Positions 16,038 through 20,342 of a stretch of DNA of 64,000 nt are shown one piece after another. The DNA is taken from NCBI RefSeq assembly GCF_029227855.1, contig NZ_CP074356.1; one strand, 5' to 3'. The position numbers were made by a program, and so were the translations under genes. The notes beneath the pieces are model-generated. The model was not told where the DNA came from. It did not search any database and saw only the letters and a program-made list of their open reading frames with translations. The DNA is from Escherichia coli (GTDB lineage: Bacteria > Pseudomonadota > Gammaproteobacteria > Enterobacterales > Enterobacteriaceae). Numbering within the stretch: position 1 is the stretch's first letter; every line of letters starts with the position of its first letter.

Positions 16038-17018
16038 ATGCGCAAATATCGTCTAAGTGAAGAACAGCGAGCCTTTAGTTATCAGGAAGATGGCACTAAA
16101 AAAAGTGTGTTATTACGGCAGATTATCGCCATTAGCGATTTTAACGATGTGATAGCAGGAACCGCTGGCGGCTGGATCGATCGCGAAACGGTGTTAGCAC
16201 AGGAAGGAAATTGCTGGATTTACAACCAGAATGCTATTGCGTTCGGCGGAACGGTGATTTCCGGTAATACGCGTATCACCGGCACCAGCATGCTGTGGGG
16301 AGAGGTTTACGCAACGGATAACGTCTGGATCGATAATAGTGAAATCAGCCAGGGTGCATATATAAGTGACAGTGTCACCATTCATGACTCATTAGTTTAC
16401 GGGCAATGTAGAATATTTGGTCACGCCTTAATTGATCAACATTCTATGATCGTCGCCGCACAAGGCTTAACGCCCGACCATCAACTCCTGCTCCAAATTT
16501 ATGATCGCGCAAGGGTTAGCGCCTCGCGTATTGTCCACCAGGCACAAATTTATGGCGATGCCGTCGTCCGGTATGCTTTTATTGAACATCGCGCCGAAGT
16601 TTTTGATTTTGCCAGCGTTGAAGGTAATGAAGAGAACAACGTCTGGCTATGCGATTGCGCTAAAGTCTACGGTCACGCGCAGGTGAAAGCTGGCATAGAA
16701 GAAGATGCCATTCCGACGATTCATTACAGTTCGCAGGTGGCGGAATATGCCATTGTGGAAGGTAATTGTGTGTTAAAACATCATGTCTTGATTGGCGGAA
16801 ATGCCGTGGTATGTGGCGGACCGATTCTGCTCGACGAGCACGTTGTCATACAAGGTGAGAGCCGTATTACAGGTGCGGTGATAATTGAAAACCATGTGGA
16901 GTTAACCGACCACGCCGTCGTTGAAGCCTTTGATGGCGACACGGTTCATGTCCGTGGTCCAAAAGTCATTAACGGCGAGGAACGCATTACTCGAACGCCA
17001 CTGGCAGGGTTATTGTGA
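16038..17018 (+). CDS. ydcK: Hexapeptide-repeat (left-handed beta-helix) protein YdcK (326 aa)
   Basis: Repeated hexapeptide pattern in the translation; divergent from tehA. Confidence 0.85.
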
Positions 17019-17549
17019 ATCGATAATAAGCGCGTATAAGTTCACATCATCATAGGCATCATTCAGGAACTCAGCCTGTTTCAGGCAACCTTCAAGGATA
17101 AAACCATTGCGCAAAGCGACCTGGTTGCTTTGCGCATTGTCCACCCGACATTTGATCACGAAGCGTCTAAGTTCACCAGACTGAGCGTAATGATGAATCA
17201 ATGCCTGCAGCGCCTGAGAAATGATCCCCTGCCCCTGATGAGATTCGTCCAGCCAGTAGCCGATTTCAGCGGTTTTATTCAGTGGTTCAATACGATTAAA
17301 CGAGATAACGCCGATAAGTTCATCTTCTTTGAAAATCATGAACATTTTGGCATATCCGCGTTGATGCAACATTACATTGCCCTGCACCGTTTTTCGCGTG
17401 TCCTCTTCACTTTGAACAAACTGCGGCCAGTTTAGCGACTGCTGTAACCAGGTTTTATTTTTACAGATTAACTGATAAAGAGGTGTGACGTGATTTTCTG
17501 CAACAGCATGTAATTCAAGTGATTCGCTTACTTTTATCGTTTCAGTCAT
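17010..17549 (-). CDS. rimL: Ribosomal protein L7/L12 N-acetyltransferase RimL (179 aa from the ATG at 17549)
   Basis: GNAT acetyltransferase fold; start [14 protein letters not shown] preceded by GGAG. Confidence 0.9.
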
Positions 17550-17580
17550 CTTATCTCCAGTCACTCCATGCAGTTGTTAA

Positions 17581-18289
17581 TAAATATCCTCCGGCATAGC
17601 CGGAGGTTTTTCAAATGCGCCTATAAGGCTCTCTTACCAGCCGCGCCCTAACAGGCGCACACGATCTGACATTTGCATCCAACTTCGTTACTTACGGCCC
17701 GTAAACGGGCTGCCCGGATAGGGAATCGATAACTGCTCTCCCATTTTATCCTCTTCAAGCTGGTGCTTTGTGTAATCCTGTATCTTCGCCGTGTTCTTAC
17801 CCACTGTATCGACGTAGTACCCTCTGCACCAGAACTCCCTGTTCCTGTATTTGAATTTCAAATCACCAAACTGCTCGTAAAGCATCAGACTGCTTTTCCC
17901 TTTCAGATATCCCATAAACCCGGATACGCTCATTTTAGGCGGGATCTCCACAAGCATATGGATATGATCTGCACAGCATTCAGCTTCCAGAATCCGTACG
18001 CTTTTCCACTCACACAGCTTTCTCAAAATACTGCCTATTGCTCTACGCTTCTCTCTGTAGAACACCTGTCTTCGGTATTTTGGCGCAAAAACTATGTGAT
18101 ATTTACAGTTCCATCGGGTGTGCGCTAAGCTCTTTTCGTTCCCCATTGGGACCCCCTTTTGATTTCTTGTTTGACACTTGCAGTTGCCAGACCGCAAGGT
18201 GTTTTAACAAATCAAAAGGGGTTTTAATAACAGGCTCAAAGCTGAAAGCTTTCCGGAACCCCCAGCCTAGCTGGGGGTTTTCTGTGCAC
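17581..18289 (-). mobile_element. IS200-family insertion sequence (IS200/IS605 family), copy 1, ~709 bp
   Basis: Single Y1 (HUH) transposase gene; subterminal hairpins (cctccggc ata gccggagg at 17588..17606; aacccccagc cta gctgggggtt at 18257..18279); a stem-loop sequesters the tnpA RBS; boundaries set by comparison with copy 2 (ambiguous by about 2 nt at one end and a 6-nt A run at the other). Confidence 0.85.
17688..18146 (-). CDS. tnpA: IS200 TnpA, Y1 HUH transposase (152 aa from ATG 18146)
   Basis: HuH motif HIHMLVEIP and putative catalytic Tyr in ...IQDYTKHQ...; AGGGGG RBS 6 nt upstream of the ATG. Confidence 0.9.
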   Translation of the reverse strand: MGNEKSLAHTRWNCKYHIVFAPKYRRQVFYREKRRAIGSILRKLCEWKSVRILEAECCADHIHMLVEIPPKMSVSGFMGYLKGKSSLMLYEQFGDLKFKYRNREFWCRGYYVDTVGKNTAKIQDYTKHQLEEDKMGEQLSIPYPGSPFTGRK

Positions 18290-18312
18290 AAAAAAGCCGC
18301 CTGGCTGGCGGC
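18290..18312 (-). terminator. Intrinsic terminator of ydcH (gccgcc/ggcggc hairpin plus T6 on the minus strand); the T-tract directly abuts the IS200 end
   Basis: Seen directly. Confidence 0.5.
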
Positions 18313-18322
18313 TTAGGAAAGT

Positions 18323-18547
18323 TTACACCTCTTTGACGCTCTCCTGCTGCAGGATTTTGAGCATCTCATCTTTTAACTGTAGCTTTTGTTTTTTCATGCG
18401 GACCACTTCCGCATTGTACCCTCGACCGTCGGAACCTTCCTTTCTGGCAATTTCATGATCAAGTTTATTGTGTTTATCGAACAAGGACATAAAGCGAGGA
18501 TTTTCGTTTTTCAGACGGGATATTAAATCTCGATATTCTGGAAACAT
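18323..18547 (-). CDS. ydcH: DUF465-family small protein YdcH (74 aa from ATG 18547)
   Basis: ORF MFPEYRDLISRLKNENPRF... with AGGGAG RBS. Confidence 0.85.
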   Translation of the reverse strand: MFPEYRDLISRLKNENPRFMSLFDKHNKLDHEIARKEGSDGRGYNAEVVRMKKQKLQLKDEMLKILQQESVKEV

Positions 18548-18686
18548 ACGCACTCCCTGTTAGTGGCTGACAAGGTGTATCTGAAATACACACCATCAGA
18601 TTACTCATTTAACTTAGGGAAAAATGCGAGCGGGATCGTGTTTAACCAGACGGCACCTCCCGAAGAAGGTGCCGAAGAAAAAACGA

Positions 18687-20342
18687 CTAACTCATCACGC
18701 GGTCGTCAACATACTGACGTTTATCCGGCGCTGGCGGGAAATACTGATACAGCCATGTTTCACTGATAGCGTCCCCCTGACAACGCAGATACATCCGCAT
18801 ATCGACCGGATCAGTGGAGTCCGAAGTCGGATACCAGTCAAACTGAATACGATAACCATCAATTGGTTCAATATAGAGAATTTCGATTTGCTTCGCTTCC
18901 CCACTGGAAAGCGTAATCACCGGCTCAATGCCTTTTGGCGCGGCAGCTTTCAGATCACCACCAACGAAATCGACGGCAAAACGACGCGCCCATTTTTCGG
19001 GATAGTGTTCACCTGGAGCCCAACCTTCCGGGAAACCGCCCATGCCGGTACGCGTCGCCATAACGCGCGCTAATGGGCAATGAACAGGCGGTTGCGCGCT
19101 CCAGTACAAACGATACTGGAATGCAAACTCATCACCCGCTTTTACAGCTTTTTCTGGCTGCCAGAAGCAGACAATGTTATCCAGCGTTTCACCCGTAGTA
19201 GGGATTTCCATCAGGCCGATGGTGCCCTTACCCCACTTGTTACGCGGCTCCACCCACAGACTTGGGCGTTTGTTATACCAGCCCATAATGTCCTGATAAT
19301 GAGAGAAATCACGATCCAGTTGCAATAAACCAAACCCTTTCGGGTTGTTGTCGGTGTAAGCATTGAACTGCAATTTTTGCGGATTGTTCAGCGGACGACA
19401 AATCCACTCGCCATTGCCCCGCCACATGGACAGACGATCTGAGTCATGGATTTGCGGATGAATGGTGTCGCACATCCGACGTTCATTAGTACCGCAGCTG
19501 AACATGCTGGTCATCGGCGCAATGCCCAGCTGTTTAATGTCTTTGCGCGCATACAGGTGATTTTCCACATCCATAATCACCTGACTTTTCTCACAATGGA
19601 TAGTGAACTTATAGGCACCAGTAATGCTGGCGCTATCGAGCAACGCATAAACGGTAAAGGTGGTTGCCCCCGGTTTTACCGTATCAAACCAGAAGGCAGT
19701 AAAGTCGGGGAACTCTTCTTTACTGTCGGTGTAAGTGTCGATCGCCAGGCCGCGAGCCGACAAACCGTATTGATATGTATCATCAACCGCGCGGAAATAA
19801 CTCGCGCCGAGGAATGATACGACATCACGGCGCGCCAGTTCGGGGGCTTTAAACACGCGAAAACCGGCAAAACCGAGATCGCTTTGCCCTTCTAATTGTT
19901 TGGTATCAACACCCGCATCGTTGTATTTGAACAACTCCGGGCGAAAGTGAATTTCACGCGCCAGATGTGTTGCGGGATCAACAGAAAACATACGAACGCG
20001 GCGGCGGAATCCCATTCCCATATGGAAGAACTGAGCGTCTAGTTGACGGTTCTCAACGTTATGCCAGAGCGATTTTTCGGCGTCGTATTGAATACTGTTA
20101 TAAGCCTGCGGCGTCATTGTCGCCAGCGTGTCAGGTAACGGACGAGGCGCACCACGCCACGCGGTTTGCGCTAAGTCGTGCGCCATTGACTGTAGAATGG
20201 AGAAGTCAAAACGTTGGGTTTGCCCGTCGGCAATATCAGAATCTGCCGCGAATGCCGCCTGAGAAAAAAGAGAAGCAATGCCGCTGGTACCGCACACGGC
20301 GGCCATAGCCATTGAACCTTTAATAAATCGTCTACGATCCAT
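18687..20342 (-). CDS. opgD: Osmoregulated periplasmic glucan biosynthesis protein OpgD (MdoD), Tat-exported, 551 aa
   Basis: Twin-arginine signal [10 protein letters not shown] followed by an MdoG-like domain; recognised sequence. Confidence 0.95.

Follow-up and report, generated by a model that had tools for sequence, protein, structure and literature searches.

Does an IS200 element that ends a few tens of base pairs upstream of rimL take over the transcription of this gene? The locus lies in a window of 64,000 nucleotides from Escherichia coli (RefSeq assembly GCF_029227855.1, contig NZ_CP074356.1; the window is the whole stretch of DNA that was analysed and all coordinates refer to it) with the gene order opgD - ydcH - [IS200] - rimL - ydcK - tehA. 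The initial annotation had concluded from the short distance between the IS and the rimL start codon that rimL transcription depends on the IS or on read-through. We examined the boundaries of the element, the empty site, the insertion preference of the family, the hairpins and candidate promoters around rimL and the distribution of the junction among E. coli genomes. We consider it probable that this is a standard IS200C copy at its usual site behind the ydcH terminator and that rimL expression is unchanged or somewhat lower.

An IS200C element lies between the ydcH terminator and rimL

The features of the locus are as follows.

17010..17549, minus strand: rimL coding sequence, L7/L12-serine acetyltransferase, 179 aa, intact (ORF list, RefSeq annotation of the identical JNEC-KY178 region, Pfam)
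17550..17578, minus strand: native DNA from the IS200 right end to the rimL ATG, 29 bp (empty-site alignment)
17579..18289, minus strand: IS200C element, 711 bp (empty-site alignment and 10 other insertion loci; RefSeq product name)
17688..18146, minus strand: tnpA, Y1 (HUH) transposase, 152 aa (Pfam and annotation)
18156..18279, minus strand: IS200 left-end regulatory region, comprising the terminator hairpin (18257..18279) and the tnpA 5'UTR stem-loop / art200 region (Rfam; anatomy of Ellis et al. 2015, PMC4513863)
18290..18314, minus strand: ydcH intrinsic terminator, hairpin AAGCCGCC-AGCCA-GGCGGCTT followed by T6 (terminator and fold scans; identical in the empty site)
18323..18547, minus strand: ydcH coding sequence, DUF465, 74 aa (ORF list, annotation, Pfam)

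Alignment to the empty site of a K-12-like IS-free genome placed the right end of the element at 17579 and showed a precise insertion between T6 and AACAAC without target duplication. Comparison of the filled and the empty site gave the junctions ...GGCGGCTTTTTT|GTGCACAG...GGATATTTATT|AACAACTG..., and the IS-free K-12-like allele reads, in the rimL direction, ydcH-TAA ACTTTCCTAAGCCGCCAGCCAGGCGGCTTTTTT|AACAACTGCATGGATTGACTGGAGATAAG ATG, with the bar at the point where the 711 bp (GTGCACAG...GGATATTTATT) enter. Two other placements of the ends were rejected. A boundary that takes in the T-run was ruled out by the empty sites (K-12, L005), which retain all six T's, and assignment of the final TT to the target DNA was ruled out by all other IS200C copies, which share GGATATTTATT ahead of the point where their flanks diverge.

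The element is co-oriented with ydcH and rimL and carries tnpA as its sole gene. The tnpA product matched Y1_Tnp (PF01797) over profile positions 2-121 of 121 with 126 bits (E = 9.7e-37), and RefSeq labels the identical locus in JNEC-KY178 as 'IS200/IS605-like element IS200C family transposase'. The left end matched the Rfam family STnc490 (RF01405) over model positions 1-124 of 124 with 145.2 bits (gathering score 56, E = 2.6e-31), and its hairpin, CCCCCAGC-TAG-GCTGGGGG at 18257..18279, has an 8-bp stem and a 3-nt loop. A scan of the window for inverted repeats with a threshold of 100 bp found no inverted-repeat pair of that length or longer. The published anatomy of IS200 is a 707-bp element with an intrinsically weak tnpA promoter and a left-end terminator at nt 12-34 that protects tnpA against impinging transcription (Ellis et al. 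2015, PMC4513863). Like IS200 of Salmonella and E. coli (IS200/IS605 family), the copy studied here has a single 152-aa Y1 HUH transposase, a length in the range of about 707-711 bp, neither inverted terminal repeats nor a target duplication, a left-end terminator hairpin followed by the structured tnpA 5'UTR / art200 region (STnc490 at full length) and a subterminal hairpin at both ends. Unlike the 707 bp quoted for the Salmonella copy, which was compared by its published description, the element here measures 711 bp, and there is otherwise no substantial difference. Earlier work has already described the element together with its anatomy, its regulation and a preference for sites near terminators, and the same insertion is annotated in public genomes.

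The short spacer upstream of rimL is native

The rimL start codon is the ATG at 17549..17547 and its product is a GNAT acetyltransferase (Pfam Acetyltransf_3, E = 8.7e-23) that is intact in all IS-bearing alleles examined. The initial annotation had put the IS end about 31 bp upstream of rimL; the element does adjoin rimL, with a gap that the empty-site alignment sets at 29 bp (17550..17578). These retained 29 bp hold the Shine-Dalgarno sequence GGAG (17555..17558) and, as was correctly noted, are insufficient for a full promoter plus leader, and all DNA beyond -29 is IS DNA. In IS-free E. coli the entire gap between ydcH and rimL is 62 bp, made up of the ydcH terminator hairpin and T6 (33 nt) followed by the same 29 bp. 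The right end of IS200 thus lies 29 bp from the rimL ATG because the native spacer consists of only 33 nt of terminator and these 29 nt.

Neither the ydcH terminator nor the Shine-Dalgarno sequence of rimL nor the site of the reported rimL start (-20) was altered by the insertion, and the left end of IS200 begins directly 3' of the last T of the ydcH terminator. Directly ahead of the 29 bp, both alleles have a hairpin rich in G+C and then a run rich in T: the native one reads GGCGGC-TTTTTT here, the one with the IS CCGGAGG-ATATTTATT. As the short spacing is native, the argument that there is too little room for a promoter holds for rimL in every E. coli and not for this strain alone. That the spacing makes rimL dependent on the IS therefore does not follow, the same 29 bp standing behind the ydcH terminator in the IS-free gap. 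An IS-free allele with the same short spacing and normal expression had been named as the finding that would speak against IS dependence; the spacing proved to be native, which bears on the spacing alone and not on normal rimL expression. Taken together, the interpretation in the initial annotation is partly supported, and its regulatory inference gains no support from the spacing argument.

At its other end rimL (17549..17010, minus strand) is convergent with ydcK (16038..17018, plus strand). The 3' ends of the two genes overlap by 9 bp and therefore the transcription of each gene must run antisense into the other.

IS200C enters directly behind terminator hairpins

To define the target site we took the junctions of IS200C at 10 loci: ydcH, the second copy in the window (43123..43833), opgD, lpdA, guaA, kdsA (two alleles), pgm, carB and one unnamed locus. 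Each of the 10 has the left end, GTGCACAG, directly 3' of a stable terminator hairpin whose gene lies upstream in the same orientation. Behind the hairpin stands a T6-T8 run at nine of the ten, and the left end follows ...TT in every case. The exception is opgD, where the hairpin is followed by GTCTGGTT and the left end stands after ...GGTT. The right end of IS200 terminates in TTATT. These junction sequences give a very clean rule for the left end, which implies that the target is a T-run adjoining a hairpin. An enrichment of terminator-like sequences immediately upstream of ISs, strongest for IS200/IS605, has also been described (preprint, bioRxiv 10.1101/2025.07.22.666184). Terminator targeting together with a very short intergenic region thus accounts for an IS200 that stands 29 bp from rimL.

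The second IS200C copy of the window, at 43123..43833 on the minus strand, is identical to the first at 704/711 positions. It lies directly 3' of a hairpin and T6 (ACCGCAACGCTGATACAGGTTGCGGTTTTTT), with its left junction at 43833/43834.

By sequence, the right-end hairpin terminates weakly toward rimL

Close to its rimL-proximal end the element carries a second hairpin.

17588..17606, minus strand: IS200 right-end subterminal hairpin CCTCCGGC-TAT-GCCGGAGG (fold and terminator scans; the plus strand continues TTTTTC)

The hairpin proposed at this site is real and its coordinates are exact. Its stem of 8 bp includes 7 G-C pairs and closes a 3-nt loop; the minimum free energy is -15.9 kcal/mol (z = -4.7), and 0/200 shuffled sequences were as stable. 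The hairpin is conserved within the element, being identical in the second window copy (43123..43833) and in an IS200 variant with 4.3% divergence, and its shape matches that of the left-end hairpin (CCnCCnGC-TAn-GCnGGnGG). It is the partner of the left-end hairpin and IS200's right subterminal hairpin. The TnpA transposases of the IS200/IS605 family recognise two subterminal hairpins, on the top strand. By analogy, the right-end hairpin presumably serves TnpA recognition on single-stranded DNA.

As a terminator the hairpin differs between the two directions. Toward rimL its tail, AUAUUUAUU, had a T-tail score of 1.57, less than the 95th percentile of random 15-mers (1.97), and T-tail scoring found no uninterrupted U-rich tract 3' of the stem in this direction. 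On the opposite strand the stem is followed by UUUUUC with a T-tail score of 3.75, as compared to 4.2-4.5 for the ydcH terminator. A lenient terminator scan (5 T in 8) reported the hairpin on both strands. By its sequence the hairpin should terminate poorly toward rimL and well in the reverse direction, and we infer that it acts as a weak terminator of the tnpA mRNA and a stronger one against transcription from the rimL side. The native IS200 gene has been described as having a 'weaker transcription terminator' (Haniford-lab preprint). The proposal that this hairpin attenuates read-through into rimL is possible, but with a T-tail score of 1.57 in that direction the attenuation is probably slight.

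For both IS200 hairpins the T-tract is much better on the plus strand (TTTTTC and TTTTCTGT), which is antisense to tnpA, than on the sense strand. From these sequences IS200 looks better shielded from antisense than from sense transcription.

Transcription of rimL in the empty and the filled allele

A transcription start for rimL in K-12 was reported at U00096.2 position 1496942, 20 nt upstream of rimL, with 2 reads and a 5'UTR of 20 nt, and the same table lists no start for ydcH (Kim et al. 2012, PMC3415461, Table S1). The start at -20 equals window position 17569 and falls within the retained 29 bp, and its core promoter would span the insertion point. Published SMRT-Cappable-seq and Cappable-seq work and the primer list of Mendoza-Vargas 2009 yielded nothing on rimL. 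We scored sigma-70 promoters that would fit the -20 start with a PWM (-35 and -10 hexamers, 15-19 bp spacing) and both alleles remained at background level, the best constrained scores being -2.9 for the IS allele and -4.1 for the empty allele, which did not exceed those of 24-32% of random window positions. A consensus promoter scan of 17300..18700 returned 0 sites as compared to 2.2 expected by chance. A start for rimL inside 17550..17580, which had been raised as the case against IS dependence, is therefore on record at the equivalent of 17569, but weakly (2 reads) and without a sigma-70-like promoter in either allele. With 2 reads behind it and no sigma-70 promoter to be recognised in the empty or the filled allele, the -20 start is weak evidence and may be noise or a processing site. 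Leakage from upstream may be a further source of rimL transcripts.

In K-12 the sequence TTGACT at -17..-12 of rimL together with AACGAT inside rimL gave a strong promoter-like score (top 0.015%). A start from this site would lie within the rimL coding sequence, and the window and other strains have GTGACT instead of TTGACT (window 17564, rimL position -15).

Transcript ends were also considered. Term-seq in K-12 assigned ydcH a 'primary' 3' end 2 nt past its stop codon (Adams et al. 2021, supplementary file 1). This end corresponds to about window 18321, upstream of the terminator hairpin and not past the T-run, and it does not settle the efficiency of the ydcH terminator.

The preferred reading of the locus is as follows. 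IS200C has entered directly 3' of a terminator T-run, here that of ydcH; its left end abuts the terminator, and tnpA points the same way as the gene that is terminated. rimL would have been weakly expressed before the insertion and would be likewise after it, with the leader, the Shine-Dalgarno sequence and the weak start kept. Its transcripts would come from low-level initiation near -20 and from leakage from upstream, which formerly would have passed one hairpin, the ydcH terminator, and would now arise from the weak tnpA promoter and pass the weak right-end hairpin. Transcripts derived from ydcH would have to cross three hairpins, since the left-end terminator and the right-end hairpin of IS200 come on top of the ydcH terminator. 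We expect, as somewhat more likely than not, that rimL expression in the presence of the IS is unchanged or somewhat reduced and not raised. If native expression is mainly ydcH read-through, the two added hairpins could lower rimL substantially.

Carried further, this last case would make the insertion polar: rimL would need read-through of the ydcH terminator, and the IS200 left-end terminator and right-end hairpin would cut the supply and leave rimL strongly down or effectively silent. In favour of this, ydcH and rimL point the same way with 62 bp between them, no sigma-70-like promoter fits this native spacer or accounts for the -20 start, the left-end hairpin is a described terminator against impinging transcription (PMC4513863) and the insertion adds two hairpins to an unaltered ydcH terminator. 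That terminator, however, already looks strong (T-tail 4.2-4.5) and read-through was probably never large, a K-12 start at -20 has been reported (PMC3415461) and the weak right-end terminator should pass tnpA transcripts. In addition, every lineage examined has kept an intact rimL, although the insertions may be too young for decay. The locus resembles polar IS insertions and IS-borne insulation in that IS200, with its documented left-end terminator, stands here between two co-oriented genes. Unlike polar insertions it is not within the coding sequence of an operon, and behind an existing strong terminator the added polarity is perhaps marginal. We consider such strong polarity unlikely; if it did occur, less acetylation of L12 to L7 and less detoxification of processed microcin C would follow.

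A second alternative, the strong form of the interpretation in the initial annotation, is that rimL is driven from within the IS, either by read-through from the tnpA start (about 18250) or by an outward-facing promoter, so that the IS sets and possibly raises rimL expression. The initial annotation had called for promoter prediction in the right end of the IS, and our PWM scan returned one candidate there, whereas the stricter consensus scan found none.

17586..17614, minus strand: candidate outward-facing promoter in the IS right end, TTGAAA-17 nt-GAGGAT, predicted start about 17579 (home-made PWM scan, hypothetical)

The candidate scored 9.4, in the top 0.08% of window positions, and its leader of about 30 nt would retain the Shine-Dalgarno sequence. 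Activation of rimL from this PWM-level candidate may occur. The right-end hairpin is weak as a terminator toward rimL, and for ISTosp1, another member of IS200/IS605, the transposase gene is reported to be co-transcribed with genes downstream. Against this, the -10 element GAGGAT matches at 3/6 positions, the stricter scan is without a promoter throughout 17300..18700 and the tnpA promoter is intrinsically weak (PMC4513863). A literature search found no specific report of an outward promoter in the right end of IS200 or of downstream gene activation by IS200, and the one promoter that a consulted review gives for IS200 itself is the antisense art200 promoter at the other end. The short-spacing argument, moreover, applies equally to the IS-free allele. 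As with ISs whose ends supply outward or hybrid promoters to adjacent genes (IS1, IS2, IS10 pOUT and others), the IS end is within promoter distance of a start codon and any upstream promoter elements are necessarily IS DNA. Unlike these ISs, the IS200 end supplies no convincing -35 or -10, and its single candidate, TTGAAA-17-GAGGAT, is weak and hypothetical. We regard control of rimL from within the IS as improbable, more so than strong polarity.

The junction is rare and arose more than once or was converted

The junction between the IS200 right end and rimL was found as one contiguous match in 20/5426 complete E. coli genomes (0.37%), a set with roughly 15,000 IS200 places; the 20 fall into the following groups.

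JNEC-KY178, 1 genome: same sequence as the window over 17400..18450
Avian isolates (strain 64.1 and 4 relatives, L006), 5 genomes: IS3-family element after nt 8 of the IS200 left end; avian-pathogenic lineage
Second IS200 variant, 4 + 8 genomes: two different rimL backgrounds
AF40 (L008), 1 genome: ydcH deleted between two IS200 sites, giving the order opgD-IS200-rimL
SCU-109 (L009), 1 genome: IS100 (IS21 family) at about window 17622, within the right-end region of IS200

The second IS200 variant differs from that of the window at 30-31 of 711 positions (4.3%), whereas the flanks differ by about 0.4%. The two variants are far more divergent than their flanks, and therefore by sequence either the ydcH-rimL site was hit more than once or the IS copy was converted. 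In 12 further genomes (e.g. EC556, L005) IS200C stands after the opgD terminator, upstream of ydcH. The arrangement in AF40 is the product expected of recombination between IS200 copies at the neighbouring opgD and ydcH terminators. A single ancestral insertion in 31 genomes was considered and ruled out, as 12/31 have the IS after the opgD terminator and the rest comprise two IS200 variants.

RimL is discussed, as far as titles indicate, in papers on microcin C7 and on microcin resistance. Kazakov and colleagues are said to have reported in 2014 that RimL acetylates and detoxifies processed microcin C. A far-reaching combination would have the IS200C right end act as a functional outward promoter, or pass sufficient tnpA read-through, and so re-wire the next gene at each terminator-targeted insertion, with the recurrence reflecting selection that acts on the dosage of rimL, through L7/L12 acetylation or the detoxification of microcin C, and not target preference alone; we consider this very improbable. 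Least probable of all is that IS200 recurs at the exact nucleotide because altered rimL expression is selected for, for instance by microcin C, and not through target preference. The same junction does recur, with two IS200 variants that differ by 4.3% and next to three or more different rimL flanks. Terminator T-run targeting, however, accounts for this by itself, the neighbouring opgD terminator was hit about as often (12 genomes), the overall frequency is just 0.37% and homologous recombination of the region could also spread one insertion.

Implications

The insertion is a rare IS200 polymorphism upstream of the non-essential rimL and matters little in itself. The layout alone says little on rimL expression, because IS200 is at its usual landing site and the gap between ydcH and rimL was tiny beforehand. 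The spacing between an IS and a gene should accordingly be compared with the empty allele before regulatory consequences are inferred from it. For the family, the clean terminator T-run rule accounts for where IS200C copies sit, and as IS200C always comes to lie between a terminator and the control region of the next gene, its downstream effects, if any, would be systematic across many loci.
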